A stretch of DNA of 61,823 nt, filler included, from Platydemus manokwari (lineage: Eukaryota): the NCBI GenBank assembly GCA_037951405.1. It is 5 parts of 5 records of this genome, joined end to end, with 100 filler letters (N's around TTAATTAATTAA, not from the genome) between each part and the next. Parts side by side here need not be neighbours in the genome. Positions count along the whole stretch, not along the records: positions 36,458 to 48,009 come from JBBMOY010602216.1; 4 more parts are not named here. One strand, given 5' to 3'. Shown here one piece after another: positions 19,440-58,200 of this stretch. The position numbers were made by a program, and so were the translations under genes. How positions within the stretch are numbered: position 1 is the stretch's first letter; each line of letters opens with the position of its first letter. The notes beneath the pieces are model-generated. The model saw only the letters and a list, made by a program, of their open reading frames with translations, was not told the DNA's origin and made no database searches.

Positions 19440-22147
19440 GACATTATTTTTTTTCTGGTTCTTGAGTTTATTCCTCTCAAGGGACTTCGATAGTAAGTAT
19501 TGTGGACTATACTATCGGTAAGTAATTATCTAAAGGTTCCTTTTGATTTTAAAACTCATCACGGGGCACTAAATATAAATGAATATAACCTAGTTTAATC
19601 GTTAACTGAACAAAGTTGATTAATAATAAGATTTCGAATTATTTCTTGTCTAAATTATAATTAACAAACAACAACGACTGCTGGATTAAATTGTGTCACA
19701 TTTATAATCAGTAACTACTTCTAAAGAAAAACTATTGAAATGTGATATAAATAATATTTTACGAATGATCAAAAATTACAATTAAAAATAAAAGAAAACA
19801 CAAAAGGTTTTTCGGCAATCTCCAATGTCCCACGTAAGTGAATTATCGGAAGTCGAAAGCGGACGAAGAGGATGAGGATCTTGAATTTGATATTTTAGTA
19901 CTTATATTAATATTATATAAAGGATTAAATAGTATCGATTTTAACTTGATTATGAAAGTTCGAATTGTAAAAAATAAAAATACTTATTCTTAATCAAATT
20001 AAATAAATTATTAGTTGTTAAAATAAATAATTTGAGTCACATTGTGAAAATAATGCAGTCAAAAAATCAAACATGTTTGAAAGTAATATAATAAGATTTT
20101 ATTGCATCTTTTAAACTTAGCTACTTTAAATTGAATTGATCATTGACTTAATATTATTCTGGAATCAGTAAGACACTCTTTGTTTAGTGGTTTATTGAGT
20201 TACTATTGTTAAAGCAATGTTGTTTAAATCGGATAGAACTCTTACATTTCATAAAGAGTCATGAAGTTTTGATTTGTTGTTGTTACTTAATTACTAGTTA
20301 TCAATGATTCGAGGACAAAAGCTGTAATTATATTGTAGTCCTTTAAGAGTATAAATAAATATACTAGGACACAATAATTAATAATAGTACCACACAATTA
20401 TAATACCAAAAAGTTTCATATTATTGGTAAAAAAATCCCAAGATAAAAGTAAAGTCACACAAGGAGGAGTTAACACTTTGAAGAAAGTTCATTTTACAGT
20501 CCAAAACTTGTGCTAAATTGGTATTCCCATTTGTTGTGTTGTTAATGTTCCAGATTTGTTGATTTTTCAATTTTTTGATTTTATTTCTCATTGAATTTTT
20601 ATAGTATTTACTGTCTTGTATCAATCGACATTTAGTGGTCCAATTAAAAAGTACACATTTCAATATATTTGAATGCTTACAGACTGTGCTTGGTGCACCT
20701 AGGCGTGCTGTTATGTGATATTGGGGTTTTTTACAGGGTTGCTATACACTACCCATCTTAATATTTTGATTATAATAATTACAAGTTATAAAGGTTGATT
20801 GAACCACTGACAAATTCTTAAGAAAGTCTATCAACGAAACAGTTTTGTAAAATTATCTTTTTATTGCTGATATATCTGAATCCAAGTCCTTTTCCACAAA
20901 TTTCACAAATACTTACTATCTGACAGAGGGTACTTATTGTAATTATATTTTGGTTTAATATCAACCTATCTAAATTATATATATCCTTATATAATTAAAA
21001 TATTAACAATTATAATTATTGATGAATAAAATAAGATTTACAATTAAAGTTTATTTGGATTTTATCTATCCATCTTTCAATTTGTAAATGTATTATAAAT
21101 GTGATAAACATTTCTTGAATTTGATAAATTATAAGCAATATATTTACTTCTGAAAATGAATTATTTCCATTTGTTTTGTTCATAAATATCCTTCAAATTT
21201 ATCCAATCATGATTTGTTTTAGAATTAAAGCGAAGATATTGAATTATCAATGATTCGCATAGTTTATTCATTTCATTAGTAACTCTCAAAATAAATAATA
21301 AGATAATGAGATATGAATGGTTACATAAATATTTATCCATAATGAATTATCGATAATATCTATTTTTATTCGATCTCAGTTGAGGAGGCTAGTGATGTGG
21401 ATTAATCTTAATTAATCCTACGATAAATTCGAGGTTTCTCGGAAAATATGTTGCGTGTATTTAATTTATATAATGGGAGATAAAATATAGAAAATAAAAG
21501 AAATAAATTAAACCATTATTAATGAAAAAAAGAAACACAGATAATTTTTAATAATATTGTATATGTAAATGATAAGTTTTAAAATATATTACAACTATAA
21601 TGTCCTGAAGAAATTTGGCACAGTCCAATGGTTTTCTAATGCGTTATAAAACTCACCGACACGATATCTTAGTAATTTAATTACTAAAAACAAATTTTCG
21701 CTTCTGAGAATTTTGGAAAATAATGAATAAAATTTACTATGTATGAGTATTGAAATAATTAAGCAAATAATAGATGAGAAATAAATAATTGATTTGTGTA
21801 ATCGTGGTTTTCTTTTTTCACTGAAGATAGAATCAATCCAATTGCTTTGTTTCTATAAATACTGGTTGTAAATTTACTGTTGGGCCAATTGAGATTTCAA
21901 TTGTTTAGCTGGCTGTCCATAACTGAGAAATGAAATAATAATGATTTCCTTAATCATTGACAGAAATAAAGTGCTTCTGTCTCTACAAGAAATTATGTAC
22001 TTAATTCCTTTGTGAGACTTTTTATGAATTATTTTATGAACAATATATTTTTGTCGTAGGCACTTTGAATATTTCAGATTTAATTATATTGGATATTTAT
22101 ATTGTATTTTAACTTGGATATTTGATTTCAATAGGTATATATATATA

Positions 22148-25996: not shown

Positions 25997-28900
25997 AAAA
26001 TATCAACGAGTTACTTATCTATGCCAATATAAGATAGTAGTCACAGTTATTTCGTGGGCAATGTAGACACAGTCACAGATATTATAATACCAAAAACACA
26101 ATAAAATTGTGATTACATTGCAGTAGATAATTTTGTGTCGAGGATTGAGAATTCGACTGGCAGATAATTTAAACAGCCAAGAAGAATTCTCCAGGATACA
26201 CAAGATAAATTAAAATGATTTATGATTTGAAACGTATATGGCTAGCTAAGCCCATTCTTGAGAGAAAGAGACTTATTGACCACGAAACTTCTGCGAATTG
26301 TGATAACCATTGTCCAACATTTTTGTCCATAAAAGTAGTGCCTAACAATATTGTAATTTGGTGTATTTGGGTGATAAACATTTTATATATCAATAAAGTC
26401 CAGTTGTTAATTTTGTAGAGTACCTGTTGGTTTCATAACATTCATTTAATAATTCAAATTATCATTCACATTGTCATTCATCACCTTTATGGAACAGGTC
26501 TGAGGAGTACCAAATATATAGGGATAAGTAGTACAAAGAAGGCAGATTTAGGCCAAACACCAAACCCAACCCCATAAAATCTTTTTAAAATTTTTTCAAT
26601 TTCAGATTTTTCTAAATTTGCAACGTCATATGGTTTTCTTAGAATAACAATAAATTTTATTTATATTATAAAAATAAATAAAAAATAAACCAATAAAAAA
26701 ATAAATAGTATCTGATTCCACATCTAAAAATAAAATTAAATAAATTTATTAAAAAAATTTAAATTAACATTAATTTCGTTTTAAAAAAATGAAATTCGTT
26801 TCAATAAAATAAAAAAATAAAAATTAAATTTCTTTAAAACGAAAATAGAAATTTAAAACAAATTTCTTAACAATAATATAAAATAAAATGGATCTAAAGT
26901 TAAAAGGGGCCTAAAATGAAATTTTAAATTTGTGGAGTGTATTTCAAAATCCTATATAGTTTATTTAATTATATTCTTCAAAAACATTTTAAATTTTTAT
27001 TTAAGTACTTCAGAAGAATTTGAGTTGTTTGAAATCAGATGTTAAATACACTAGAGCTTAAAAATTGCCTAAAATTTTATTATTTGTAAAAATGTAAAAA
27101 GTTGGTCGAATTGCAATTTATTGAAAATTAGCGAGGACCTCTTTTATAACATTAGAAGCAAATTGAAAGATATTTTCAATTTTTACAATTATTTTATAAA
27201 AATAAGAATGGTATTATTGAACATATCTGTAATTAACAAACTCGATTTATAATTATAAAATTTAAATTTAAAAACTCAAATAATCATATAGAGATGTTTT
27301 GATTAGAATGGGAACTTGATTTTAAAACTGTGTTTTGTCACTATTAGACAACTTAAAAAGTGAGATATCAAGTGAATTATACGAATAAATCAAATATAGT
27401 AGTGATATACAAAATTAAGTTATAAATTTATCTCATGCGCGAAAATTCATCATTACGAAAGTAGATCAAAGGACCCTTTTTCTTAACTTAAGCTTAAAAA
27501 TGAAATAAATTTCCTTTCAATGTAAATAAAATTCAAATTTCGCAAAAACAAAACAAAAATAAGTTTCTTAAAAATAACATAAAAATAATTTTTTATAAAT
27601 AAAATAGTTTTTTTAAATTTTGTAATATGATAGATAATACTAAATAATGAACCAAATTAAATGTACTAAATACGAATAATTATTATATTAAATTTAGTAA
27701 AATAGGATTAAAAACATTGTTCAACACTGCTTATTTCGTCTCCATACGAGCATTAGAAATGAACGAGTTGAAAGAACATCAAACATCAAGGTTTATAAAT
27801 ATCCATGGGTCATCAGAACTCTAGAAATAGGTTAAGTCATAGACATTGTTAGAAACAACAATAATTACAATGAAAGCAAATGGATCTCAAAAGGAACAAG
27901 TAGGCAAAAGATATAAATATAGAGGATAAAGATAGACAAAGAAAATTAGTTATTAAAAATACAGAATAAATACATATGTATACAGTGTTTCCTACAGCGA
28001 ATCTCCAACCAAAATTATTCTAGGATAAATAAAAATTCATTTCGTTGTATAGCAATAAATTCTATTGACTCTAAAAATTCGAATTCTTTTGATTATCGAT
28101 TGATTGATTTGTCTATTCAATTTAAATAAATACTATGACATCAAATAACTGAAGAGTACACGATTATTGGATATGATTTTTTATAAAAAAGGATACTGCA
28201 GATCAATTAATCGATTGTCAATTGCTTCTTTAATTAAGAGATCTGGATCAAGTACAAGTGTTGATTCAAAAAATCAACTATAATCTCGTGATTTTCTAAT
28301 AAAATTTGCATGTGAAGATCTTTACAAAATTGTGCTTATATAGAGCATATATAGAGAATGCGATTCAGAGAATATCCAGAATAGATAGAGAATTCAATTT
28401 TTATGTTGGAAGCTTATATTAAGCGAGAATATTTCACTGTGAAATACAAAGTAATGCCCAGTCAATAAATAAGTAAAATAATGAATTCAATATTTGATAT
28501 GAAATCTGGGATGATTGATTTTCATAACTGAGTTGTTCAAATTTTGAAATCATATCTATCTAAAATAAAATGATCCTGATCATATTAATGACAAATTTAT
28601 TCAGCGATTTTAGTTTTACAAGTTGATCCTTTTCGACCGAGAATACAACTATCACTCACTCACGAGCAATTATATATTCCCAAATATAATCCATATTAAT
28701 AATTGAGAAGACATAAAAATATTTTTTTAATTTTATGTGGAAACACATCAGCAGTTCAGTTAAAATAAAATACAAAATATCATGTACTAATTTGTATTAA
28801 ATTACAATTTAAGTGTAAATGCTCTCCATCAAATTTATTTTAGGTAACAATTTTTGATTGGCTCAAAATTGGTTACTGGAGATTGTCGACACCAATAAGA

Positions 28901-36457: not shown

Positions 36458-37279
36458 ATATATTAGCATTGGTATCAAAAATCAGTAAACCGATTGCAAT
36501 TTCACTACTTTTTAAAATAATCATTAAAATATTTTGGTAATGTTTCGATACAACAAACTTTTTTCTGTTCGACTTTTCTATTTTGTTTTCTCAAACAAGT
36601 AGCCTGTTTTAATAGGGATTTTTCAGAACAAAAATCTATCAGTTAGTTATGAAGACAAATGTGAAACAATGAACAAGAGAAATTCAAATGCGATAGGGCT
36701 TATTTCTGTGTATTCCAATAATAATTTAAAGGTACTCGACAGAAATGAAAATACAATAGAAAATATAATTAATATAATGGCAAGAAACTTTTATCCAATG
36801 CTGATGGATTGTTGGTGGTATTAGTGTAATTAGAGTGTTAATAAAAGCCGTCATCAATTTCCAGAGTGGGACTACATTCAAAAACAATAAAATCTCGTTA
36901 AATTTTCTTTTCTGCCAGAATTAAAAAATATTTTGATAAAATAAAATGAAATGATTACTAACAAACGTTATTGATTAAAAAAATATGCTTTATTTGATAA
37001 AAAAACTTGATGAAAATATTTATGCAGTCCAATACTTTTCAAACTTAACCGCCAATGAATTTCGCCCACGCTTGCGTGAGAAATAGATCGAATAAAATTT
37101 GTACCAAAATTATAGTATTTTTCTCGCAAAATTTGTGTAATACTAATGATATTTTATAAATTTATATCGTAACTGTAAAGAGAATTTTGAGAATAAGTAT
37201 CATGTTGTAATTAATTTATTAATATTTTCCATTTATGATGATGCTATTATTTCTCATTTAGATTGTGCAAATCATATCG

Positions 37280-37850
37280 GAATTGAAAATATCTTTCCCG
37301 ATTATGATTTATGGAAACAAGAAGATCCTGATTTATATACCAGAGGTGAATTGGAGTGATTTTATTATTATTTCTCTTTTCTCTTCGACTTTTCTATTTT
37401 GTTTTCTCCAAAATCATTTTATTCTAATAAATAGGATTTCTCACACTGAACCCCGCAGAATTCATTTTATAAATACGATGAACCAATGGTTTTGAAATGT
37501 TAAGTTTCTTAAATGCCCTTCGTGTGGAGAAAATGTCATCCATATTATTCAAAGCATTAACAACTGCACCAACTTTATTGTCATCATTATCATAACAAGG
37601 TTTGTCACTTGGTTTTTCACCAACACTTCCGATAAATTTGAATTTCTTAAAGAAGACATCGAGTTGCAATCAGTTGATTTGTAGTAAAAATTTTCAAAGG
37701 TCGCACTAGTTGGCGATAAATTGCTGTTTTATAAAAATTCTTTAGAATGACACCGAATTTATTGTGATGCAACGATGAATGCCATATTAAAAAGTTCAAT
37801 GAATTTTTGTCGATTTTTATTTGGGAATTTCACTGTGTGCCACACTGTTT
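37280..37850 (-). pseudogene. Tc1/mariner-superfamily transposase N-terminus (DUF4817-type HTH) relic, partly duplicated at ~36,540-36,640
   Basis: MAFIV..., KKFKFIGSVGEKP...VVNAL...FSTRRAFKKLNISKPLVHRI (KFxxTGSV..PRSG; STRRxAxxLxIS..TVxRI). A CAGTGTGGCAC TIR-like end lies at ~37,847. Confidence 0.65.
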
Positions 37851-38199
37851 AAGTCAATATTTCTGTTCTAGTATTGGCTATATTATTTTAGATAAATATT
37901 AAAATTTTCTCTCATTACCTGATCAAAACTATCGTATATAAAATATTTTTATTAATATTTTTAAATATATTAAGAATGTTCAAAGGAAATTTTTCTTATT
38001 TAAAATTTATAAAAGGAAAAATGCAGAAAATAAATAAAATCAATCTTTAAATATTGACATTAGAGTACTATTTACTTCAACATAAAATTATCGACATTTG
38101 TAAATTGAAGAAATTATCTTCTCATTTATCCTCTCCTTCGATTCATATTTTTTTTAGAAAATAGGATTAAATATTTCATATTCATGTATCAGTGGTCTT

Positions 38200-39290
38200 A
38201 TTCTTTTTAACCAATGATATTCAGGGATATACAAGCATACGAATATGCATTATCATCACAACTGTATCCAATTATATTTCTCATAAATTTAGTTTTTCAT
38301 TGTTTTGAATATTATTTCGCAGTTGAAAGCAAAAGAATGTGTTTCAAGCCTTCTGAAAGATATTAATCTTTCTCCAAATGAAAAAGTACCCGAAATTCCA
38401 CAAGTTAGAAACATCAAACAAGATATCCTTAATCAATATGCTCTGGTTCATTTGTCAAATCAGTTTGAGTGCCATAAACAACTGGAAGCGAATTTTAAAA
38501 GCCTGGTTGATCAAATGTCTTGTAAAAAATAGAATTTTTTCGGGTTTTTTAAAAGTTTTTCAATATTGTTAAATATATCTTCAATCTCATTCATTACAAA
38601 ACACAAAGAATTGTTCAAATTTTCCTTATTTGATTGACAAGATTCTGAATTATATTGATTTCAATTAAATATGGTGTGTGTGAATTCATTTGATATAACT
38701 GTGTTAAAAGAATGAGCCTATAAATCTTTTAATTTCATTTTGAGAGTTGTGATCTCTTTATAAAATGCGAAATGATGTTTTCGGTTCATGTAAAATGATT
38801 ATGGGATTTGGCAAAAATTACTAAATGATTAATTTTTTCTAGACAAAGATTTTTATAATTAATTTTCCTCGCTGTTTTATTGTAAGATTTCCTATGTCTT
38901 ATCTTTTACTTAATATTTCTTCATCAAAATATTCAAATGTTCATCAATATACAGCCATTTAAAATGTTGAACAAAAATATAGTGTTTCTGGTTCAAGGTA
39001 GAAAGTAAAAACTTGCTTCCTAATTTTAAATGTGTTGTATTGTTATTTTAGCTGCATTTTCTATAATTTGAAGATTACTCAAGATTCATCAGCAGTGATT
39101 AAATACGGAAAAGTAAACTAAACAATTAGCCAATGTTTTCATAAATATCTTTAAGATATTAAAAACCTGTTATATTAATTCATCATTTCAAAGTTCGCTC
39201 AATAGTGGATTCAAACCAATGACCTATTTAATCAACTTTAATAACATTTACGACTTTTGTGATTTCATTTAGCACCTATATTAGGAAATT
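38200..39290 (-). pseudogene. Degenerate hAT transposase fragments
   Basis: VLNEITKVVNVIK and a C-terminal dimerisation-like CEIIFKTMK..TKFMRN (CERxFSxMK..K...RN). Heavily disrupted. Confidence 0.4.
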
Positions 39291-40543
39291 TTTCGTTATG
39301 TTTGGAACTTGTTTTTAAATTTTTTAAAAACGAGAAATGAGATAAATTTAGAATGAAAATCAATGGAGATGAATTAACCATAATAAGCAACATGGCAAAG
39401 GGTTTTATAAATAAGCTATAATAAATTAGTAACTGATTCAAAACTGTAAAAATAAGATGATTAACAAATGTATAATAAATATAATACGCGTTGTGATTTT
39501 CTGTAATATCTTCTCATAATAAATTTAGATTCGTCTCAGAAAAGTTATAATAAACATTAGTCGATGGCAATATTTCACGATAGAAGAAATAATTCATTAT
39601 ATATTGTTGACGATAAGATCCTCTAAGAAGAGATATAAATTGTGCTAAACTAGGTGTCAGGATACCTTCGCGATAAAAAATGTAGGTGGGAAGCTTTGAA
39701 GGAGTCTCATCTATTTAAATGAAGCACAGATCTCTTCACATAGTTGTAGTGTCTAATGTTAAAACTAGATCAGCGATTATTGTTGCTGTAATCGTAAATA
39801 ATCCGAATTGGAAATATAAAACGACTTTTTGAAAATCACTTAAGATATTCAGAATTTTGAAAATGTTCTTCAGGGATAAAGCGAGACAAATTCTTTAGAA
39901 TTTTCAAGTTTAATTTGCAGATTTTCATTTCAGTCATGTGTGGAATCCAATATAGTCGTAAAACAGGACACATAATTTTAATCAGAAAAATATTATTCAT
40001 TAAGTAAAAAATAAGATTACAAAAATTTAAAAATTCAACCCTACAATAGAAAACTAAAAGTTAAATTTAAAAAGACATAAGCACGGAAAGTATTCAAAAA
40101 AAATTTAAACTTTTTATAAATATGCAGCAGAATTGAAAAGTATTTATACTAAATTGTTTAATGAAAGACTTAGGCAGTATGGGAATGAAAGTGAAGTCAT
40201 AGCAATTACTCGGATCTATGAAGCCGTTAAAGATCAATGGAAGGACAACAACGGAGATTGTGAAGAGCAGAGGATTATGAGAAAGAAAGAACAATTAAGT
40301 TCGTAGGCACCAGTAAATCTAATTTGGGACAATCCGATGAGGATTATGGACGGACAAAAATCGTCTGGGAAGGTGATATAGATTCGCCCAATTATGAGCT
40401 AAATTTCGTCTATCAATTAGACCTATACAACGAATATCTAGAGATAAATGGGAAAAGACCATCGAATACAACTCATAATGCAGCTCAGCCAGAGAAAAGA
40501 AAGTAAAGACGCGTGAGGACACTCTTTCCAGATCACCTTGTAG

Positions 40544-43251
40544 TGTTGGGTTTTAGAAAATCAGAGATGTGACATTCATTTTGTGCATGAAATATTTCTA
40601 TTGTGGTTATTATGTAAATATTCTATATGTCGATGTATATTCATAGTAATTTTTATCTTTAATAATATTCTAATTTTATTTCTTATTTTTCTTTCTGGAT
40701 AAAAATCCGTCCTGGTTAATTAATAGTTAATATAATAAAGAAATAAAATTGAAATAACTTTTAAAAGTTATTATTAAAGAACCAATTTTCAAAATATAAT
40801 AAAAACCCGAAAATAAACATGTATTTTTAAAACCCATTATCTAAAATATACCCTTATTTTAAAATACCCAAATATTCAAACCACTCCTATAAAATAATAG
40901 AATAAAAAATTACCTTTATTAAAATTGACTGCAACTAAACTGAACATCAATAGAATTTAAGTCCCTTTTGTTAAGAAATAATAAACATCATTTTCCACCC
41001 GTATATCGAAATAACAGCCCGTAATAAAAATAAAAATCCTTTGAAATTAATAAAGGAACCCGCATTTCAACAGAAATTCAACCTAAGTAAAATTTGTATA
41101 AATAGGCCTTTGAAATCAATAGCAGACCCATCCCGCCTGTTACAAAAGACCACTTATTGCTGAAGAACGTACGAAGTCAATAATTCGAACTCATTGAGGA
41201 GGAAAGCCAAAGCCAATTTCCCTTGAATCAATCATATGCCCAGTTCATCTGGAAGATCAGTTTTATATTGATAGTCGTTCTGATTGATAGGATATAGAGG
41301 ATCGAGGACTCGACGGTAAGATACGATTCTTGTAAAATCATCATCAATTTATATTTGAATCGCATATTCTCCCTATTCATCGGGTTAATCCCAATCATCT
41401 TGAATAATCGGTTCTACTCCTCTTGGGAGCATTGTCAACCAGAACTTTTAGCCAGAATTGTAAATCTCTGTCCATTTCAGTATATACAAGTATTGTTCAT
41501 ATTTAACCATAAATCGTTGTGTAAAAGTAGTAATTCACAGCCATAATTGTCGTATAAAAGTTGTAACTCATATTGTAATTTTTATAGCAATAAAAGCGTA
41601 TAATCATAAACGAGTTGGTTATGAATTTGCAAGTGCCCTAAGCATCACATAATTGTTTATAAAGGATCATTACATTGTCATTTCATCATCTTTTTAGAAG
41701 GGTGTAAAGAGGCGAAAAACAATAATAATAAATTGAGGCTGATTACTAATAAAGCAATATCATTGAGCCGTTCATCCCGTTTTCATACGAGGATTGATAC
41801 GATCAAGACGAAAGAAGATCATTCAATAATAGGTTATAAGAATTCCGTAAGACTGATTAGACTCTGATAATGATTTTAGGGGCTTATCGTTTTACTTTAT
41901 TTGAATTTTTGTTTGCTTTGGCAATATCTGAGTCTAATCAGCTCTCTGAGTCCGTCTGGCCCACAAGTAATCTCTAAACCTAATATTTTTGATATTTTTT
42001 CGCCTCAATCACTCCAATCCGTGTATGAAGATATTGCTATAATGATTTATATTATTATTGACCGTTAAATACTTTAACTATATCTTGCCAAAAAAGGTGA
42101 TGAGATGGTTTTTAATAATGATAATATTTATAAAAAATGATTTTTGGAACTTAATGGCAATATCAAAAACCAATTTCCTTGATATTATTCATTAATATAT
42201 ATTACTACAATTATACAACGATAATAATAAGCTTATAAATTACTACTTGTACACAATTAATTAAAAATTGGATTTTAAAAATACTTCTATGCACTTGAAC
42301 GGACGGATTTGTACAATTCTGGCAAAAGCTACCGTTAACAATGCTCCCAAGAGGAGTAGAACCGTTTATACAAGGACTTTGGGTTTAACCCTATAAATAG
42401 GGAAACATGCGTTTGATGTTATAAATTGTTGATGATTTTATAGGAATTATCTTACTCAATCTTTGGACTTCTTCTCGAACAAATTGAATATCAATTATCA
42501 AAATTTATCTTCCAGACGAATCTTGGGATATTCCGTGTGCGCAATTGAATCTTCTTTCTTGGATTTTAATACTAGTTGATGTATTACCACACTTTTAAAT
42601 AAATAACTATGCGTCGATTCTGCCAATGTTTTGCTGTCCCACTGTTGTTATTGTGCTATCGTGTCGTTTATTAATTGCAGTCACTGTCTTATCAAGACAG
42701 CGATGACTCATTCTGCGAATTTTTATTTATTATCGAGCATATGTGTTTAAAGCACTGGAATATTTTTAGGCAGTGAAAAATTTTCTGCCATTATTTTTAC
42801 CATGACAGAGTTAAAATCTCTATGATTATTTCAATGCATGGCTTATTAAACTTAATGCGTGATATTTATTTAATACCTAGCTATTTAATTTATTGTAGGT
42901 GTATATTCTATCTGCAACGCGCGATAATGGGTGTTAGATATTTGCTTTGCGATAACACATTACGGGTTATTTATTATTATTATTTTATAGGTATTTTTTA
43001 TTATAACGGATATTTTTTAAGGGTTTTTAATTGTAATAATTTGTGGGATATTTTAAAACGGTAATACAATATCATTTTGTGTATAAAATATATTATATTT
43101 AATTTATATCAACCGCAGAGCTTTTAAAGAATTATAATCCAAAACAATTTAAATATTATTTTCAAGCAATATACTTTTATACACTGATACAGGGACGATT
43201 TTAATACACTAAATCATGCAAATAACGAAGTCAATTTTCAAAACCCCAACA
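40544..43251. mobile_element. ~2.7-kb imperfect palindrome with TG...CA termini; candidate giant palindromic LTR
   Basis: Ends TGTTGGGTTTT / AAAACCCCAACA. Exact 26-bp inverted match GGTTCTACTCCTCTTGGGAGCATTGT (~41,410) vs ACAATGCTCCCAAGAGGAGTAGAACC (~42,338). Inner CTGATTAGACTCTGAT vs ATCTGAGTCTAATCAG. All pairs centre near 41,890. Confidence 0.8.
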
Positions 43252-43954
43252 CTGATATTGTCCAAAGGAATTTAATTATCGTTGATAAAGTGAGAAAACA
43301 AAAGAGACTGATCCCAAAATCGAACATAGGGATTGCCGCTTAGGTGGCCGGACTAACCTTCAACCAACGGTTGAGATGCTGATGGAATCCTACTAGCCTG
43401 TGCTTAGTAGTATCTGGTGAGTAGTTATAAGTGTAATTCAACCAGTAAAACTCGATGAATTACCTGTGCACTATTTAATTGATGATTAGAACCGGAATAA
43501 TGATGATTCCACCAATAATTCAACTTTAATCAGTAATTTGCGTGTAATAATTCAGGTGTAATAATAATAGCAATAATAATGATATAATCAATAACAAAAT
43601 GATAACTCAATACGTATATTATACTAAAGATTAATAAATGTGCTATGCGATGATTTTTACATATGGAAGTGTCGTCCCCTGAAGAAGTTTAAAACAAACC
43701 AACGTAAGGAACTAAGTGCAGCCTTACTTCAGACGATAAACTAAAGGAGATGTGAATTTGAATTTTAGTATTTTAGGGCTACAAATCTTAGCGACTTTGC
43801 AACCAATTGATTTCGTGGTACAAAGGCTTCCGCCTTTATACCAAGATCTCGTAATTTAAAAGTGCCCCAGGTAGAAACCCTTGCGGCTTTATACTCAGGT
43901 GCGAAGATCATAAGTAAAATTACCGAATGCATTTTGAGAGAAGATTTAGTCATA

Positions 43955-44078
43955 TCTGCAAATTTCGTAGATAATATCACAGATGTAAATTCCGTAGATC
44001 GTTTCGCAGATGTAATTTATATAAATGATTTCGAAGATGTAATTTCCGTAGATAAATTCGCAGATGTAATTTTTCGCA
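43955..44078. repeat. 27-bp minisatellite (~4.5 copies)
   Basis: GATGTAAATTCCGTAGATCGTTTCGCA / GATGTAATTTATATAAATGATTTCGAA / GATGTAATTTCCGTAGATAAATTCGCA. In frame these give the 9-aa repeats DVNSVDRFA / DVIYINDFE / DVISVDKFA. Confidence 0.8.
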
Positions 44079-44492
44079 GAGTAAATGTGGGCCAACCTCC
44101 TAGTAATAATATAAATACTCGTTAACACAGAATTTCTTAAATTTACTTAATTTTTACTTAACTTTAATCCATATATTTCAAATTAATTTAATGTTTATGT
44201 GGTTTTAATTAATTAATATCTTTTATATAAATCTTAATCAAATCGACATTATAAATTTAAATCAAAATCAACATTTATTTGATTCTATAAATTATTTAAT
44301 TCAATGCTATTGTTTTTTATCAATTTAAGTTTAAATAAAATACTTTTCTTAGAAACTCATCTTTCGAGGGTTCATTTTAATGAAATAAGAAATGTATTCC
44401 AGAGTGTATACTAAATTATCGTATTATTCAAAGCTTTAATGTGTTTTGTTTAAATAATATTTACTAAAATTATTTTTTAATATATTTTTTAA

Positions 44493-45727
44493 ATGGTTAG
44501 AATATATTTTTACTAGAAAGGATGACCAAATTTTTTATTTTTAGGCTCGTAGTGCTGAAAAGAAAATGTAGGATTTTATTTAGAAAAATTAGCTTTTTAT
44601 TAAATTGAATTAAAAGGACTGCCTTGGCTCGTTGGAGAGCGGTCTACGAAGATAAAATATCATTCAGAGAACGACCGAAACTTGCTTCAGAATGCAACAG
44701 TCTTAGAGATGCAAATATGTTCAGAAGACAAATCCTAAATGAAATCACGAGGAAAATAACACAAATTCAAAATTGTGAGCTCATTTTTATTTTAAACATA
44801 AGTTATTGAATTTTATCAGCTTCTCTGGGTGAATTTAAATTAAGAGATCTTAACGATGAAATTAATCGTCTCTTTCGTGAAAAGGGTCATTGGGAAGATA
44901 GAATATTAGAGTTGGGTGGAACTGATCATAAAGTTTAATATAAGTATTTTTATGTTTGTTATTTATTGTCATATAGAAAAATTCTTTCATAATGATGGAA
45001 AAAGAAGGCAAATCCTTACCTGGAAATTGGGGCTATCGATATTTTGGTGCAGCAAGGGACTTACCAGGTGTACGAGAATTGTTTCAAAATGAACGTTAGT
45101 ATTGGTAAAATTTTAAATTGTGATATAATAGTTTTCCATAGCTGATGGAATTACTAAACGACTTCGAGTGGATCTCACGGATAGTTATTATGGTTATCAA
45201 TGTGAAGCAGATGGCATTATCTTACCAATAGAAACAATATCAGAAAAAGAGTTTCGTCAGAAATTATTTAACGAATGGGATAGGAAAAAGCTCAAACGAA
45301 AAGCAGCAACTGAAGTTCTTGAAGACCAGCATGAAGAACGTGAACAAAATATCTACGAAACTGGTGACAATCCCGCAGATGTCGAACGTGATACGATATA
45401 CGATGATTTGAAAAAGAGCATGATCAACGATCACGGACCAGAATCCTTAACGGATCTCGAGTCACGAGTGAAGAGATTCACTAATATTTGCGTTCCAAGT
45501 CAGTCAGAAGTGAGATATTTCGTAAAGATATTTCACGACCTACTTTTATTTCGTTCATTCAGATTGAGAAAACCGTTGTGAATTTGAAGAAAGATAAAAT
45601 CCTCAAAAATTATATGTCGGATGATTTGATTGCCGAAATGGTGCATTCCGGCACATTATTAGGCATGGAAATCGCTTCAGAGGATCCGGTCGAAGAACGC
45701 GAAGAAACCGAATCAGAAATTAATTAG
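44493..45727 (+). CDS. ISY1: Pre-mRNA splicing factor ISY1. Exons 44493-44495, 44545-44567, 44617-44774, 44820-44932, 44977-45094, 45142-45509, 45563-45727.
   Basis: M|ARSAEKKM|TALARWR...RPKLASEC...RRQILNEITRKITQIQN|SLGEFKLRDLNDEINRLFREKGHWEDRILELGG...GYRYFGAARDLPGVRELF...YYGY...VPSQSE|IEK. All introns are GT-AG, 44-53 nt. Confidence 0.95.
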
Positions 45728-47214
45728 CATTTTAATAATAATATCGATTTGTTTTGTCGTGTTTTTGAGGCATGATGTGTATTATTTTGTATTCATTTTA
45801 TATATATTTGTTTTCCCGCCAATTTACGTTTAAATAATCACCTTTATCGATATAATGTCGTTTCATATAATGTGACATTTTTATTCTTTATTGAATCAAA
45901 TTAAATGAATCGGAAATCACAGGAGTTCGTTGATCATATATTTCAGGTAGTTCGTACAACCTGCGCAGAGACTCATTTTTAAAACAAACCAATTAGCATT
46001 AGCCAAATAACACTGAAAATTCTTTCTCACACCATTAAGTAGTGTTTTTATTTGACCTTCGAAAAATATTGTTCATTATAACAAAAACTTAATTAATTAT
46101 TTTGGACAAAATTCTTTAATTGTTTTGATCTAATATTTACCACGGATAATTGGAACTACTCGATCTTCATTGAAAATGTTAATTATTCATTTTTATAATG
46201 TTAATTTTTTTAAAATTATATAAAAGTTTTTTTCAAAAGTTAATTCATTTCTGTATAACTATAATCAGATTCATTTCTATACAGTAATATTTTAGTATTC
46301 TAATAATCTTGACTAATCTTTGTATTGCTGAATGTATCAAAAACCACTCGAAATTACTGACAAAAATCCTGGAATTAGACTAATATGAAGTACACATCAA
46401 CAAATAATAGCCACTATCACAATAGCCAATCAGAGTCTTTAAATTTGATTGGAGTTCAGTTTTAAGAATGAAAACATTCAAACAAAACCTTTACGCAAGG
46501 CTTCAAAAATCTTAAAACAAATAAATTCAATTCACAAGACATTGATCCATACAAACAAAATTAAAACTAAATAACGAGTGAGATCTGGACAGAAATTGCC
46601 AATATTTGAATAGTTCCCAACTTGGCCTATTGTTTTTATCTTTCAGTTAGTGACTCTCTTCTGTTTGTTATACTTCTTTGATTGGTGAACTTTATTCTTC
46701 AAGCTTTCGTTGTACGTTATTTATTTCCAATAGTTTTTGTTTATTTATGTTTGTTGAGATATGTTATTTCCCTATCGTAAAATAGAGCTAAATTTAAAAT
46801 AAGATTTGAGATATTAAAAGTTGCTAAAAGAATTACTAAATCACAAATTTAATCAATGAAAGAGAATTCGAAATCCAACATGAACTACCAATTTAAACAA
46901 TTTATTTCTTTTATGTGTAATATAAAAAATATGTTCATAATTTCAGTTAAGAAAAAGGGGTCCTTTGACCTTATTTCGTTATGAGGTATTTTGAGATAAA
47001 ATATAAATCTCCAAAACATTTTTAAGTTTAGACAAAAATAATACCAAATTAATAAAAATTATCTTTCCTTTGTGCTTCATTATTTTAAATTAATACAATC
47101 ATCTCGATATTCTGAATTGTAATTATTAATTTTATGGTTGTCGTATTTAAAAAACAATTATGATATTATAAATAAAAAATATTTATTTTTAAAATTTACT
47201 CATGGTATTCCTTT

Positions 47215-47688
47215 CGTAACACACCTTTTCCGGCCCTGTTTAAGCAAAATTAAAAATATTTAGTATGTCGAATAGAGGCAACATAATTGTTGAGAATAGA
47301 GCACTCTAAATACGAACCATAAATAATCCAAATCCCAATTCTTAATAATTCTCTAATCCTTCTCTCCAAATCCCAATTCCAGACAAATCTCCAATAAAAT
47401 TCAGCTCTAAACAATTCTCCAATCTGTCCAATGTTCCATCTCAGAATTATATAATTAAATTCCAATTCCTCAATCTTTCCTAATTCCAATCGATAACCTC
47501 ACAATCTTTCAATATCAATCAAAACAATCCCATTTACCATATCCTACAATTGACCGGATTAGAAAGCAGCCTCAACGATCAATATCAATATGGACAATAA
47601 CTTATTGTTAATGAACTAATTTGTGCTTTTTATTGTGTGAATAATGATTTGTGTAATATTTTGAACTGTAAACCGGAGAGAGTGACAG
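47215..47688 (+). mobile_element. Possible LTR with degenerate CCAAAT/CCAATT tandem low-complexity repeats
   Basis: Starts CGTAAC, ends GTGACA followed by a TGG-containing PBS-like stretch. Internal CCAAATCCCAATTC repeats. Confidence 0.3.
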
Positions 47689-48009
47689 TGGGAAGCGAAA
47701 AATATTTGAGCAAAATAATTAAAGAAAAATTAAATAGACAACGATAGTGAATATAAGAGCAAAATAATAATAATAACAACAAAATGAAAAAGTGGATAAC
47801 AATAAATAAATAACAATAATGAAAATAGCAGCAACAGTACTAATAAGAATCTAGGAGTATAATATAATAATAATAACAACATGAAAATAATAATAATAGT
47901 AATAATAAGTGTTCAAGTTATAAAAAGATTGCAAATACCAGGTTGAGTCAAAAGTTATTCATGTTTTTATGCAGGTATTTTATTAACACAAATTGTTATA
48001 ACGCTGAAC

Positions 48010-48109: not shown

Positions 48110-51100
48110 ATAGACTATATAGTTTCTTGTAATACACTCAACAAATTTGAAATTTTATTTTACAACCCCTGGCTTAAGTTAAGAAAGAGTACTTTGAACT
48201 ACTTTCGTTATAATGAATTTCCTAGCGTGAGATAATTTTATTACTTAATTTAATGAATAACTGCCATCTTTGGTTTATTCGTATAATTCAGTTAATATCT
48301 CGTTTTTTAGGATTTCTAATATTGACGAAACATTGTTTAAAAAACATGTTCCCATTGTAATCACTTCTATATGATTATTTGAGTTTTTAAATTTAAATTT
48401 TTATTTTACAATCCATCAATCAACTTCTGTATTTGTTATTTGATGGAAGGGTTATGGCTATTATTAAGAAAATCTGTGATGTAAATAGGCTTCGGTCTTT
48501 CAACAATGTCTTCATTTATTCTTCAAGGAAAGTAGGATGTTTTGGAAATAACTGCCCCTCTTCACGGCTAGTATGTACAGAATATTGTGGTGGCCTTTTG
48601 CTTTCTCAATTATAGTGATAAGATTTCCGTCAGTTCATAATAATTGAGCTCAAAGATCGAAGGCTAAAATTGAAATTTATTGTTGATAACCTCAGACCGA
48701 CAATCTGATTATTAAAAGCCTTGTGCCTATGATTGTATAAGAAGACCAAATCATACATTTGAGAAAAGAAGTATAATGCAAATTTTAAAGATTTATAAAT
48801 AATTACATTAATAAAAAGATATAAATATATTAAAATCGTTATAACTTTATTAAGTGCACTGAAAAAATATACTTTTCTTGATTGAATCTTTTAAAATGCT
48901 TCCATTTCGTAAATAATAAAATGAAAGCGCGGAAAAAACAGTTATAGGATTTTCATAGGATTTTCAAAATATTAAAAATACAAAATCAAATCATCATGTC
49001 ATTATTCACAGCTTGATGAGCGGGTTATTAATATCGACTAATTAAATAAGAAATAATAATATTATGAATTAAAACGAGACTTTAAAAATCTCAAATTAAA
49101 TTATGGCAAAGACATTTTGATATCATTTTAATATTCTATAAATAATCTGAATTTGATGTTCATTTGTAATTCAAATTTCATGTTTGTTAGAAAATGTTCC
49201 ATTTCAAGCTATATGTAAATATTTATTGATAAACATTTACAATCGAAGTAGCCCTATATTAAAGTAAGGAATCTACAATGTTTTTCCTTTCCATCGTTTC
49301 ATGAACCACATGTCGTTAGGTTAAACATATTCTCGATTGATTATTTCATGCTATTCTATATTTAGTCTCTGTTGTATCTTCTTTCCATATTTTTAATGTT
49401 CCCTTCGTTGCTATTTTCTTTCCCGTTTGTAACTTCCATTGTAGATCACTCGCAATCACATTCGACTTTAGACAGGTCAGAGCTTTTAATCTAATCCCAG
49501 TTACTTTAGAACGATATAGTTGTTCTGTGCTTGCCAAATTCCGAAATATGAAATCCATTTAGTCTGGTTTTTAGTAAGCAATATTCATTACATTATGTAA
49601 CTCACGATATTTTGTATCCAGGAAGATTTGTTTATATATATAATTAAATTTATTCTGGTTTAAACTGGCTTCATTACCTCATTATTTAGAGATGAATTGC
49701 TGTGAAATTGACTAAAACAATGGGAGTTTGTTTAATTTGGGATTAAATTTATAATAAAATCTTATGAAATAGTTAATAAAGCAATTTTTTATTATCGGCA
49801 TCATACGTTGAACCTTAAGTAATTATTATTGATTAAGTAACCAGTAATATTTTTTATTGTTCTACAAGTTTGTCTTACTTAGACAGTTGTCCTTTAATCT
49901 AATATAATATAATATTACCAGACTGCAGTTATTTTAAATTTGCACAAATAATTTCAAAGAATAATTAAAGGCCCTCTTTTCCTCAATTGGTATATTGATT
50001 TGCACTATACGTTCACAGGTGCCCAGGTCGGATTGTTGAGAATCCGATTGGTTTAGCAACAGGGCCGTTTGAAGTCGTTTTTCGTTTGATTCCCGGGGAT
50101 ACTTTTCACACTTTCGAGCACTGATCACTCCGGAATCGTTGATGATTATGGTCTACCATTGGAATCAACAGTGAGATGTGCTCACTTTCATTGTTGAAAA
50201 ATCATAATATGATCTGTCCGGGAGAATAATTAAAATATTTACAGAATCATGAGTAGCTAAGCTTTGCCAAATCCGAAGACAAGTCGAGCCATTCCAGTGA
50301 GAGAAAGCAAAAATCGGTAATATAAAGTTAATGAAGTGACGAATAAATAAAATGATTAGGTGATTAGTGATATGACAGTGTGACCCGTGTTAATTAGAGA
50401 TGATAGTGATAATGTGGATGACGGTGAGAATAATGGATGAGCCCAAGATGATTATTATGGGCTAAATAGTTGTGTTGTTTATGATTTGGTAAGGAGGAGT
50501 AAAGATGCAGTTGTTATCACTTAATGGACCCCTAATTTTGAAATTATCTTTTTATCTCTGCAAATAAATTTAATTCGCGTCTCCGATAAAATATTTCTTT
50601 TCCTTTCAACTTGTAACATTTATTGTTTTACCTTTTAATTTATAAAGACTTTAGGGTGGTATTTTAATATTTTTACACTAATCTCCTTTTTATCACTGTT
50701 ATACTTTACTGCTTTTATAATAATAACATTGGCCTATGTATGTTATTATTCTGTTTATTTCAGCCCAAACCGTGAAGCCAATGTCAATAATATATGAATT
50801 CATTCAAAACGATAGATAATTGTGACCAGATTTCAAATCACTATCCTCATTTCGAATAACCTTAACGCTGTTGCTTAACGCGATTGCTTAATCAATTATT
50901 CACTTATATTTTAATAATCTGTTAAAGTTCCAGTTGTTATTTTTAATAAAATGAATTCGTTACTGTTGACTTGACAGTGATTAATTCAATGATTTATTTT
51001 ATATTCTCGCAAATATTTGTGGAAGATAATTAATTTGTTTTGCTTGAGAAAGACGTGAACCAAATATTTTAAAGAAAAATTCATATTTTTATAAATTCAT

Positions 51101-52769: not shown

Positions 52770-54060
52770 ATAGTAACGTTGACATCTACGACATCCAAAA
52801 AATCTGAATGAATATTATTAGAAATTAATGCCATAAATAAGAACAATTAATGTCAATACAGACATACATGAAATAGAAAGAGAACAAAAAGAAGACAGTG
52901 AAATAAGAAAAATAAGATGGTTAATAGAGATAGATAAAAATAGTGAGAGTGAAAGGATATAAGTTGAACGACGAAAACATATTGACTTATTGTAAAGAGA
53001 ATTCAATAGTCGTACCCAAAAATCTAAGAGAACTACTATTGCACTCATATCGTGATGGGACTTAGAGGGTTTGTTTGTCGAAATGAAAAACATACGGTAA
53101 ATTAAAATGTAAATACCATTGGAATAATATGAAAAAGGATGTAGATGAATATTGTAAACAGTGTTCGTTTTGTGCAACTAGGAAAAATACAGGAAGAGTA
53201 AGAAAAGTACCATTAAAACCACTACCACTAGTAAGAAGACCCATGGAGATATGTGCAATGGGTGTAATGGGACCATTGCCAGTAACAGAGAAAGGAAATA
53301 AATAAATAATAGTATTTTGGGACTATTTCAACAAAGTTTCATTAGCATTTTCCAACCAAAAATCATAAGAGCGAGACAATAGTCAAACTATAAATAGAAA
53401 AAATAATATTTTAATATGGAGCACCCAGTAAATTATTAACCGATAAGGGAAAAGATTTATAAATTAACGACATAAAAGAAGTCACTGGGTTATTAAAAAT
53501 AAAGAAAATTAATACATTTCCATATAGACCACAAACAGATTGATTAGTACACAACGATATAATCAAACAGTCCAAAATATGCTGTCAAATTTCATTAATA
53601 AAAAGCAAATTGATTAGGATGAGTACATTAAAACATGTACTTTCTCATATAACACAGCGTTAAATGAAACAATTGGATATTCACCGTTTTATCAAATGCA
53701 TATGAGAGATACATATTTGCCTATAGACATAGAATACTTGACAAAAAACATCAAAATTAATGAATGAAAAAGAATATGTAACAATAATGAAAGAAAAACT
53801 AGGAGAAACATATCAACATGCTCAATTAAATTTAAAATCCAAACAAGAGCAATATAAGGATTATCATGAAAAGAAAGCATATGATTATGGATTTATTATA
53901 GGATATACGTATCAGAAGTAAAAAAAACGGAATATCACAGAAATTGCAAAGACCGTCGTACAAAGGACCCTGTGAGATAGTTAGGAAGACAGTCACTAAT
54001 TTGTTCATAAAAAAAGAAAAAGAATGAAGAACTGTCAGAAATACAGGTTAAAAGGTGTAA
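52770..54060 (+). pseudogene. Ty3/Gypsy pol 3' part: end of RNase H, HHCC zinc finger, rve integrase core, GPY/F module
   Basis: NSNVD..LRHP (N.ADALSR), EREQKEDSEI, IVVPKNLRELLLHSY, YHWNNMKKDVDEYCKQCSFCATRK, PLKPLP...RPMEICAMGVMGPLPVTEKGNK, YGAPSKLLTDKG, PYRPQTD, FSYNTALNETIGYSPFY, YKGPCEIV. Multiple stops and frameshifts. Confidence 0.92.
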
Positions 54061-54130
54061 AAAACAAGAACAGACATTAGTAAGAAAGGAAATTTTAAGA
54101 AAGCAACCGACTCAAACTCAAAACGATGTC

Positions 54131-55350
54131 ATGAACATTAACATAATGAAGAAAATTCAAAAGAGACAAGAAAGTAAATTGAAATCAATCGGAAGAATAG
54201 GAAAAACAATAATAGTTTCACTATTAATCAGCCTGTTGATTAGACCAGTTCAGAGTTTCAATGGAACTGATAAAGTTAATAATTCTGAATTGACTAAAGT
54301 AAAAATATCCAAGAGTTTTAAGATCATATTACCGACCATATTGGAAAATATTACCACACCAAAAACCATTTGGAATACAACACCAGTTATAGTAAAAGAG
54401 ACCATAAAATCGGCATGTGAAATAAGAAAGGAATTCATCTTATCATACTTCATAACAATAGAGAATAATAGAGCCATGATACATTGTCAGCAACAATGTA
54501 ATTGGAAAAAATTAAGGAATTTGAAGGAAGTACAAGTTAAGTATAAAAAGAATAAGATAGAATTTTTAATAAAATGTCATCAAGGATTTGGTGAAAAATG
54601 TAAAAAGGAGAAGTTAGAAGAAATAACAATAATATGGAAATGGAAAGAGTTGATAGAGCAAAAAAGGAGATAATAGGAATTCCATGGAAACCATATACCG
54701 ATAAAATAATATATTATTTAAAAGCATTATTGGAAATTGTAGCAAAAATAGGAATAAATGAAGAAAGAGAAATTAAGTAAAATAATACCATACCATTCAA
54801 AACGAATATATTACCAGTAGTAGGAACCAATAATATATCATTTACACAATCGTATGCTAATCCATACATATAAAAATGTAATTATGAGAAAAACTTTAAA
54901 TCTTGTACGACCAGTAAGGATAAAATTGTAATTAATATTCCAGAGTGGAAGCCGGCAAAAATAATTGATGATGAAAGTGAAATAGAAAACAAGAAATGAA
55001 AAGAAATAATATAGTAGAATGGAAAGCAAAGAATGAAAAAAGTGAACATCTTAGAATACGATAAAAGGCGATTCAGTGGAAAAATTATTTAGAATAAACA
55101 AAGATAAAACAGACAAAATGTTTAAAGAGAGAATTAATATGATAGAAATCATTAAAGGATGTGAACAACAAATTTAGCATTAATAACCAGTCTAGACATA
55201 ACACTCAAATCATTAACAATAGTTTTGATAACAATGTATGCCAGAAGAAAAATAAATGCTGCCACTACACCAATTATATTTATAAGAATACCAAAAATCG
55301 CAACTTTGGTGATAAAAATGATAGTTTTGCCCTGTGTTTAGATGTACGAT
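54131..55350 (+). pseudogene. env-like secreted/membrane glycoprotein segment downstream of the integrase
   Basis: Basic stretch plus hydrophobic signal IIVSLLISLLIRPVQS|F. N-glycosylation sequons NGT, NNS, NIT, NTT and several Cys. A downstream frame holds the TM-like TNLALITSLDITLKSLTIVLITMYARRK. Confidence 0.55.
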
Positions 55351-55905
55351 AACTCAATGATGATTTTTACCTTTTCATAACATAGGAAAAGAGGAATTTA
55401 AAGATTATAATAGATACGGAAAAATAATGATATTAAACAATAAGCAAAATGCATGGGAAAACAAAACTATTCACAGTACGACTTTAAAAAAATTAAAAGT
55501 TAAAGGTGAGAAAAAATGGTAAACATCAGACGATAGAGTACACAAAAGTAGTAATGGAGCAGTAAACATGTATAATTTAAATTGTGGAATCATTTACCAA
55601 ATAGAGAAAAGATGACATCATAACAATTATAGCACAAACCCCTAAATTACCCCGGAAAATATTCATTGAAAAAAGTAAAAATATTAAAAATGTTGATGAT
55701 AAAGGTTTTATTATGGTTGATAAAATTGGGAAATCATTACAAATATTTGAAGATGAGCACAAATCAAACTTCAACGTTAATACTCACAAATCGCCTAGTA
55801 TCATTGACTACAGATTTCTTTTAAGAATTTTATCTTAGACAAAACAAAAACGGTTATTTGACTCTTTTCCAAGTTTATTTAGTCTCAAAAAATTAAGAGG
55901 ATAAA

Positions 55906-56746
55906 ATGAAATTTACTATCATAAATCGCGAATTGAATTACTTCAAAGTATCTGGTAAGGATCTTAATATCAAGAATTTCGTTTCTATATTCTATAGAAA
56001 TGGTGATTTTTGGGTTAAGATTGACTTAAAGAAAGATAACTCTAAAAATCCAACATACAGCGATGCCAGCGATAACAAAAATATTAAAATGCGTCGGAAT
56101 TATCAAACTTTTGATAAGAAAACTAATGATCAAGCTCGGTTGATTAATGGAAAATTTATTAAATTGTACTTAAATAAAACACAGCTTGTTGATGTCCCGA
56201 AAACTATTATAAAGTTTCTTTGGAATTTAACGTCCGAATTATCTGAGACTGTCTTCATCGATAATCCGGAAATCAAATGTGATAAAATCAACGAAATAAT
56301 CGATAAATTGACTACTGAGAATAAAATACCTGGATTTCTGGTAAATTCAAAAATAAAATTCCAAGAAGGTAAGTTCGCATATTTTGATTTTCTGTCGAAT
56401 AAGATGAAAACTATTGATGATCGCGTTCTAAATAAGCCTATATCTAGAAATCAAACTGCCGATCTCTTTCATAGATTCCCAAGTGTAGGTGAAATAATCT
56501 TTTTGGAATCCAAGCATGACGTTGATAGATCTGTAAGTAATCTGATTGTGCAGCTTAGAGTTTGAAAAAATTCCAGAAGATATTTTTTTAAATGGTTTAT
56601 TCTATTCCAATTCATCATTAAATAGATCTCAATATAAAATAGTTTCGACATCTTGCCCAGATTTGCAATTTGATTTAGGAGAATTTAGTCTTGCTGACAT
56701 GAGTAAACATCAATACTCGAATCACTTGATGAAGAACATAAATTAG
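55906..56746 (+). pseudogene. Uncharacterised polyprotein segment of the large Gypsy element
   Basis: 219-aa and 66-aa overlapping ORFs on the same strand, separated by a frameshift, no introns, no recognised motif. Confidence 0.5.
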
Positions 56747-57062
56747 TTTATGTTATATTTCATATGAGTCACATGACTCTAAAAAGGAAAATTAGTAAGA
56801 AAAAATGACCAAGGGCCGAAGATTTTGCTAAAAACTTCCTCATAAATTGTGCTCTAATAACTTCACACATACCGATTCATGACTTAAATAACGCAATAGT
56901 TAATGATTTTGAGTATTGGGATGCGTTTATCAGTAATCATCTAATAGAGGACTCTTATTAGAAAACAGTGAACATTGATATTAACAACATTAAAATGCTC
57001 CGAAACATCAAAAAGACTAGACTTCATTAATGAAACCATCTCATTTGATATGATTTATAAAG

Positions 57063-57320
57063 TCAACTCTTTTTATCAACATACAAGGTAACTCTGATGA
57101 TATCTCGTTACAACTTGAAAATGTTCACCAATTACGGTTTAAAATTAATACCATTCAACCCAAATGAAGCAGAAATTTGAAAGACGAGACCAAATTTGTA
57201 ACGAAAGTAATTCGAGATAAAAACGAATCACTAATGAAAGATAAACGAAAGTTTTGGTGGTCAAAATCAGGTAAAATTATTTGCAATCGCGAATTGGAAT
57301 TGGAATGTGTAATGATAATT
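57063..57320 (+). pseudogene. Candidate Tpt1/KptA-like ADP-ribosyltransferase-fold remnant
   Basis: One frame gives FINIQGNSDDISLQLE (Tpt1 IRAxQGHS...LxL) and SLMKDKRKFWWSKSGKIIC (Tpt1 xLxDGxKFxxSxNGVIL). Motif spacing is shorter than in canonical Tpt1, with one stop. Confidence 0.4.
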
Positions 57321-57467
57321 AATAATAAACCAGATCCTGTAAGCGATTTGAAACCTAATGGATGTATGAACGATGGTTTAAATACGGAAAATGAAACTAC
57401 AAAAAGTAGTGAAAAATTGTTTGAAAATCTCACTTATACCGAAACTGAAAAGGATTCAAAAGTTACT

Positions 57468-57625
57468 TGCAAATTGTGTAAAAATGAAAAACCAGTAAAG
57501 AGTCTAAGCCATAATCAATACAGTATAAGCTTCTGTGATGATTGCCTTGACTGCTTTTGCACTATTAATAGTACAATCAGAAAAAGTGAGAGAAAATAAT
57601 TGTTCGTTTGCCAATATCCAATAGA
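57468..57625 (+). pseudogene. Degenerate RING-like zinc finger
   Basis: CKLC...H...FCDDC...; the final C-x-V-C-Q-Y-P-I is recovered by a single-base frameshift at ~57,604. Confidence 0.5.
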
Positions 57626-57699
57626 ACTCGACGAACTACGAAAAGGGCATTGACGTACAGCACGGGAGAACCTCAGGATTGACAATTTGTGTGTACACC

Positions 57700-58200
57700 A
57701 GTCGACAAATAAATCTTACTGGCATGGATAGCACACTCGATGAAATTGCTGAGAGACCGGAGAGGTTCGAACGTAGAGCATGGTTTGCTGATGTCGATAT
57801 CAGATTGTATCTTCATAGAAACATTGTGAATGAACATCATTTTGGTGTTAATCTTGTACTCGTCAGTGCACTGGCTGAGGGTAGGTTTGAAATTGCTACA
57901 GTTCTCCCAGGCTGGTTTTTAGAATCAATCACACTAATGTGCCCTTTGAATATTTTAAATAAACATTAAGTTCTTTTTTGTATAATAGAGAATCTCTGGA
58001 GTCTTTTATAATGGATCTACTTAAAACCCCTTATGAACAGGAAATAGCTTTAGAACTGCCAGAAAATTTGAATAGAAAATTAAACGTTATCTTGCAGGCA
58101 AAAGTTAGTATTATTGACAATCCGCATGCCAATATTTCTAGACAAAAAATGGTTATTTGTATGCGCTTATAGTTTATTTGTAGGTTATATAAGCAAGCGA
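57700..58200 (+). pseudogene. Ulp1/SENP-family (C48) cysteine protease remnant
   Basis: WFADVDIRLYL (W.ND..I..Y), LMCPLNILNKH*VLFLY (P.N...HW.L, Trp to stop), FIMDLL (YDSL), RQK..(NGY).C followed by FIC (Q.N..DCG.F). His-Asp-Cys order and spacing are correct. Confidence 0.72.

Follow-up and report, generated by a model that had tools for sequence, protein, structure and literature searches.

Genes and repeats around the locus

The window, which is the whole 61,823-nucleotide stretch of Platydemus manokwari DNA that was analysed, contains five stretches joined by four identical 100-base spacers (N44, TTAATTAATTAA, N44) at 10053, 25015, 36358, and 48010. Since the window is a concatenation, adjacency across the spacers is meaningless. 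Its DNA has a G+C content of about 27%. Intron-containing genes for an ABC transporter, a Ras-family protein, and ISY1 were identified with Pfam. The Ras-family exon, located in a different stretch from the palindrome, belongs to Rab4; its best match reaches 79%, and the other 119 matches listed, from animals and their unicellular relatives, reach 55-71%.

The palindrome-like unit lies within the stretch 36458-48009. It is preceded on the plus strand by a broken ORF in two frames (40109-40506, stop at 40506), which has a bin depth of 40 versus 14-24 for single-copy bins. The exons of the host ISY1 gene (44609-45724, plus strand; Pfam Isy1) follow it, in a single-copy context with a depth of 14-18; a search with the ISY1 exons gave no matches. 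Between the unit and this gene lies element C (43380-43759), a separate high-copy repeat of about 380 bp outside the palindrome, with loose ends at 43380 (45 records) and 43759 (18 records) and a depth of 2,922. GAGATG is found at both sides of it (43373 and 43747). A stem-loop-like stretch can be seen by eye in this element near 43672-43736; the Rfam search over 39.5-44.5 kb, including element C, gave no matches. The same flank contains 27-bp tandem repeats (43957-44064) that occur in varying number in other contigs. It also has a local hairpin around 43787-43870, and each strand has an open frame (plus, 43811-44122; minus, 43768-44016). The joints of other contigs in this flank fall at 43751-43871 and 43948-44025.

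Other repeats were observed elsewhere in the window. A 125-bp palindrome (19322-19446, 83% self-complementary) adjoins a dispersed-repeat piece (19206-19304) that recurs at 27257-27508, 46942-47006, and 48172-48401, and that possibly represents a MITE-like family. Another dispersed repeat is found at 10153-10449, 26912-27172, and 48110-48162 with 78-87% identity, twice at stretch ends by the N spacers.

Inverted similarity of the two arms

The unit was originally predicted to be a 2.7-kb diverged palindrome with LTR-type ends, and the inverted similarity of its arms proved to be genuine. When 40544-41890 was aligned globally to 41891-43251 in reverse complement, the score was 351; 30 shuffles gave -137±25 (maximum -83), and none of the 31 other 2.7-kb stretches in the window exceeded -34. 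Identity per column is 57% over the whole arms and 74% within a core of 307 columns (41234-41535 / 42238-42531). The arms are least alike toward the outside; the best-conserved part is the internal TATA core, not the ends. The longest exact run lies inside this core and spans 27 bp (41409-41435 / 42338-42364), one more than the 26 bp first noted; two 12-bp runs were also found. When the arms were compared by segment, five of the seven segments exceeded all 300 shuffles, in a test favoured by segment borders that were taken from the alignment itself. Two segments were weak: the arm-to-arm scores of 40700-40885 and 41066-41234 were equalled by 42 and 106 of the 300 shuffles, respectively.

The termini TGTTGGG (40544) and CCCAACA (43245) were recovered as predicted, together with the inverted matches near 41.78/42.0 kb and 41.85/41.93 kb and the loop, which measures 54 nt rather than about 55 nt. 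These inner matches hold, whereas the predicted match at about 40.7/43.2 kb is weak. The homology runs on beyond the predicted right border, as far as 43326, which the original prediction did not note. The TATA-type motif CCCTATAAATAGGG of the right arm was located at 42389-42402 on the plus strand, with TATA at 42392 and AATAAA at 42598, and the outer part of this arm is T-rich (0.40). Its decayed counterpart is found at 41371-41384 on the minus strand. These motifs, which are common in AT-rich DNA, are putatively functional.

Two related elements in opposite orientation

The right arm can be described as an element of its own. Element B (41868-43251, plus strand, 1,384 bp) is solo-LTR-like and antisense to its neighbour, element A, with a summed contig depth of about 1,250-2,170. 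Its right end, CCCCAACA, is intact; its left end is degenerate without a clean TG, and its start is uncertain within 41867-41871. The hexamer CTGATA, a candidate target-site duplication, lies at the left edge of the loop (41864-41869, plus strand) and recurs at 43252-43257; about 0.03 chance copies would be expected per 80 nt. The length of this direct repeat is ambiguous, since 3-6 bp fit; at 4-6 bp it would read CTGA, CTGAT, or CTGATA. No flanking repeat of 2-9 bp was found at the ends of the whole 2.7-kb unit.

Element A consists of the left arm plus a tail. Its main part (40544-41867, sense strand probably minus) has a TG end at 40544 and homology to B, and would be the LTR-like target of the insertion; its summed depth is 211-1,597 (bins 40691-41833). 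The conserved core of A (41234-41535, minus strand), with 74% identity to the core of B, holds the decayed TATA counterpart. The 75-bp tail (43252-43326, minus strand) includes the right copy of the direct repeat. In reverse complement, these 75 bases past the right border are similar to the loop plus the inner end of the right arm, both part of B. The global score of this similarity was reached by 37 of 17,404 control stretches. The local score was reached by 30 of 5,000 shuffles. The similarity is modest, since 31 of 2,596 window stretches (two of them self-matches) also reached the local score. The tail ends in CA at 43326, and this terminus pairs with 40544 as an imperfect inverted repeat of about 13-20 bp. 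Without B, element A measures 1,399 bp (1,324 bp plus the tail), versus 1,384 bp for B. A is flanked by the 3-bp repeat TAG only.

As an alternative, a foldback DNA element had been named, whose inverted arms would here measure 1.3 kb. Foldback elements have near-identical long arms and a duplication around the whole element. The long inverted arms and the short spacer would suit this explanation; however, no duplication surrounds the 2.7-kb unit, arm identity is about 57% per column and lowest toward the outside, the contig depths of the arms are unequal, and no internal tandem modules were reported in them. This alternative is largely refuted and highly unlikely.

Contig joints, depth, and variants

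The contig records were taken from one public run and compared at 80% likeness. The assembly may itself derive from this run, and the contig evidence is therefore not independent. Two records connect 41869 to 43299 and 43287, omitting B (depths 23.6 and 16.4; among the 15 of 145 joints listed); the short side of one of these joints has just 20 letters. In the second joint, 19 of the 28 in-between letters match the start of the tail and 6 match the loop (among the 12 of 38 such rows listed), and the match of 19 is tied by three other sites in the window.

In the left arm, the bins have summed depths of 211, 1,047, and 1,597; the values for the right arm are 2,166, 1,250, 1,586, and 1,401. These values far exceed those of the unique contigs (10-13) and of the single-copy flank bins (14-24), which marks both arms as dispersed repeats. 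The summed depth, a rough guide and not a copy number, would at face value correspond to roughly a hundred copies. The inner arms are similar in depth. The mirror-image outer bins are about 7-fold apart (211 versus 1,586 and 1,401), a difference to which a greater divergence of A would also contribute; such unequal representation of the outer arms is contrary to a unit that moves whole. Independent occurrence of the two arms, which the original prediction had set against its own reading, is nearly what the direct repeat around B, the continuation of A after it, the B-skipping records, and this difference in outer depth amount to.

The variant comparison used the 35 differences located in the arms, among the 40 of 858 difference rows listed; the five beyond 43460 were left out. 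At seven of the eight alignable core sites, most other contigs carry the letter found in the opposite arm, which is what a single dispersed family should show. Outside the core, the majority at 17 alignable sites agrees with the other arm at 6, with the window's own letter at 9, and with a third letter at 2. Some contigs switch strand between the cores, at 41416/42353 and 41450/42266, and are consistent with intermediates of A and B within the family.

No contig piece spanning the whole unit was found among the 8 of 3,735 pieces listed. Together with the short contigs of the assembly and the high copy number of the repeat, this would favour an assembly chimera of two repeat copies. A chimera would not, however, yield matching direct repeats around B with A resuming in register, and the left junction joins non-homologous sequence. 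We regard a chimera as highly unlikely.

A probable antisense nested insertion

The unit probably arose when one member of an LTR-like repeat family inserted antisense into another, beside Gypsy-related debris. The nest is supported by the homology of A and B, the direct repeat, the tail, the matching lengths, the joints that skip B, and the multi-copy depth. We infer the LTR identity of the copies, their orientation, and the order of events. A copy of about 1.4 kb, element A (40544-43326 minus the insert), would have been present first. Its diverged relative B would then have integrated in reverse orientation about 60 bp from the end of A, duplicating 4-6 bases of the target. Provided that B is an LTR, LTR-LTR recombination may later have cut it to a solo LTR. 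Insertion so near the end of A leaves nearly all of A facing B as an inverted repeat. The predicted loop of 55 nt would be the terminal 54 bases of B itself, with the A counterpart lying after B.

More speculatively, A itself may have been inserted into a third, low-copy LTR-like piece. The candidate is the right flank (43327-44128), which would be interrupted by A, with TAG on both sides of A, and is itself interrupted by element C.

LTR-like character and possible relationship to Gypsy elements

The predicted LTR-like character was upheld by the TG...CA ends, the TATA and AATAAA in the conserved core, the high depth, and the Gypsy-related ORF; the single palindromic LTR was not upheld. Considered as solo LTRs, A has both TG...CA ends (40544 and 43326) and B the right end only. 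The candidate duplication around B is 4-6 bp long, and A has a 3-bp flanking repeat. Both are dispersed and multi-copy; B carries TATA and then AATAAA on the plus strand, and the TATA of A is decayed. No PBS, PPT, or gag-pol was found adjoining A or B, and ARAGORN identified no tRNAs in the window. The motif GCGTGAGGACAC (40511-40522, plus strand) was indeed found after the ORF stop at 40506. Its reading as a pre-PPT motif was not borne out, because no polypurine tract lies behind it and only 7 of the 21 bases before 40544 are purines.

Within the broken ORF, the first piece (40109-40303) has a relative in a decayed Gypsy region, namely the last accessory-like ORF there (58805-59086), with 35% identity over 51 aa and a pairwise E of 9e-9. 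The score of this pair was 83, and the next best among 918 six-frame segments was 39. The second ORF piece gave no match to 59201-59440. A chromodomain in 40264-40503 was rejected for want of Pfam support. The HMMER search with 40109-40303 returned two matches, which were also rejected; both are tandem-repeat proteins with scores that are summed over repeats. None of the candidate stretches found with the accessory-ORF alignment (245 in one search and 150 in another) was confirmed as a relative, Atlas gave no usable match with either query, and three low-complexity tblastx matches were disregarded. Upstream of the ORF 58805-59086 there is a decayed integrase (Pfam H2C2); the one relative found for this integrase has the RT-RNaseH-integrase order of Ty3/Gypsy elements. 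A Gypsy affiliation of A and B is therefore suggested indirectly, through the flanking ORF. Judged from its TATA counterpart, A runs opposite to that ORF and is therefore probably not the 3' LTR of the same element.

The decayed Ty3/Gypsy region covers 52934-59443. It contains integrase pieces (53087-54024) and an ORF with a hydrophobic segment (54011-54670), labelled env-like by inspection and without a Pfam match. Several more ORFs on the same strand have no convincing Pfam match, and one of them is Cys-rich (57168-57596). The region may be one large accessory-gene-rich element or several nested ones. The motif TATAAATAGGG at 59955, on the same strand as the ORF, may mark the 3' LTR of this region. 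The 59.4-61.8-kb tail showed no significant DNA similarity to the cores of A and B (74 and 14 of 188 controls reached the scores).

The nested geometry could also be kept with a different identity for its parts, if A and B were non-autonomous cut-and-paste elements with TGT...ACA ends. Ginger1 and Ginger2/Tdd transposons, as described in PMC2836005, have such ends, short duplications, and TIRs of 40-270 bp. The Ginger-like explanation agrees with the appearance of both A and B without internal retroelement sequence, and TGT ends with 4-5-bp duplications are known in Ginger (PMC2836005). The ends of A and B share only the imperfect 13-20 bp where TIRs of 40-270 bp should occur, and no transposase accompanies them. 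Moreover, the duplication is not CCGG/CCGT or RTATAY, the ends do not fit the TGTNR given in that source, and conservation peaks at the internal TATA core instead of the ends. Cut-and-paste elements of this type are unlikely. Polinton-type ends were also considered, and were dropped in view of the lack of a 6-bp duplication and a long TIR.

Transcription and folding

The two TATA sites stand back to back, each pointing outward, with the left one decayed. Since they diverge, the predicted transcripts of the unit itself would be homologous rather than complementary, and dsRNA would need read-through from outside. A read-through hairpin could arise from, for example, the plus-strand TATAAATAG at 41097, upstream of both cores. 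The predicted core duplex has an energy of -250 kcal/mol, versus -80±7 kcal/mol for 20 shuffles, and is equal on both strands in silico. The whole unit also folds end to end in silico, with 484 and 571 arm-to-arm pairs. G-U-compatible mismatches number 52 on the plus strand versus 53 on the minus strand (17 versus 12 in the core); nothing points to selection for an RNA hairpin. A special two-way promoter is disfavoured, and the unit most likely came about as an unremarkable by-product of a repeat family with high copy number. No function has to be invoked for the structure, which could at most give an imperfect hairpin via read-through.

These features also bear on the original prediction of one palindromic LTR. 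The 2.7-kb unit might have been amplified whole and serve here as 3' LTR to the element with the ORF stop at 40506, the working TATA being that of the right arm. The outer TG...CA ends, the end-to-end fold, the shared strand of the intact TATA and the upstream ORF, and the position of the second plus-strand TATAAATAG would all be consistent with this, and the homologous ORF at 58.8-60 kb is likewise followed by TATAAATAGGG on its own strand. However, amplification as a whole leaves unexplained why the direct repeat surrounds B only, why A resumes after B in the tail, and why two records skip B. The roughly 7-fold inequality of depth, the lack of a PPT and of a G-U strand bias, and the dissimilarity of the 59.4-61.8-kb tail to the cores also argue against it. 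A single palindromic LTR is quite unlikely.

Comparison with known systems

Nesting of LTR retrotransposons of the same family has been documented in plants, with 4-6-bp duplications and occasional opposite orientation; LTRs are described there as uncommon insertion targets (Jedlicka et al. 2019, PMC6911290). Like these auto-insertions, the present nest would comprise a relative inserted into an older copy with a 4-6-bp duplication. Unlike the full-length plant elements of that report, it occurs in a non-plant eukaryote, involves solo-LTR-like units, and would have an LTR end as its target. An antisense nested EVD/ATCOPIA93 insertion in Arabidopsis also has facing LTRs, for which an siRNA hairpin output was proposed, not shown (PMC11624286). 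The two cases would be alike in antisense self-insertion and in facing LTRs that could give a read-through hairpin. The EVD copies are young and near-identical, whereas the arms here are about 57-74% identical with one perfect 27-bp run. Such divergence would make them a much poorer Dicer substrate than EVD.

The original prediction drew on Burro-1 as an element with a large palindromic LTR; the palindrome here is probably a nest. Burro elements are giant Gypsy elements of planarians (PMC6431247). As in Burro, the host DNA is AT-rich, and the Gypsy remnant in the window (52.9-59.4 kb) has an env-like ORF and extra ORFs. Unlike Burro as described in that source, no BIR, MATH, BCL2, or ankyrin domains were found among the 128 ORF pieces scanned in the window, and the env-like ORF follows the integrase instead of lying between gag and pol. 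The word stem "palindrom" is absent from section 7 of PMC6431247 and from PMC8532177, PMC11410931, and PMC13465017. By title or abstract, none of four papers listed for palindromic LTRs concerns a long one, and the literature searched gave no statement that the LTR of Burro is palindromic.

Implications

Antisense nesting in an abundant repeat family is known and expected, and the locus matters little as it stands. It does carry a caution: a long diverged palindrome with TG...CA ends may be a nest, which can be told by an internal duplication and a left-over tail. Exact-motif scans with the conserved core gave no matches in JGI metagenome contigs or IMG/VR viral contigs. The locus thereby flags an apparently uncatalogued, high-copy LTR-like family, and also accessory-gene-rich Gypsy debris, in a poorly sampled eukaryote. 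A broader idea, which is doubtful and at best an outside chance, is that the family homes to the ends of related LTRs and repeatedly builds kilobase inverted repeats, and that some of these composites could be propagated as palindromic LTRs. The position of B, about 60 bp from the end of A, bears on this idea, as does that of A, which may sit just a few bases into a third LTR-like piece. Amplification of the composite, or targeting of LTR ends, would provide a route from nesting to Burro-like palindromic LTRs and to siRNA-producing, self-silencing hairpin loci.
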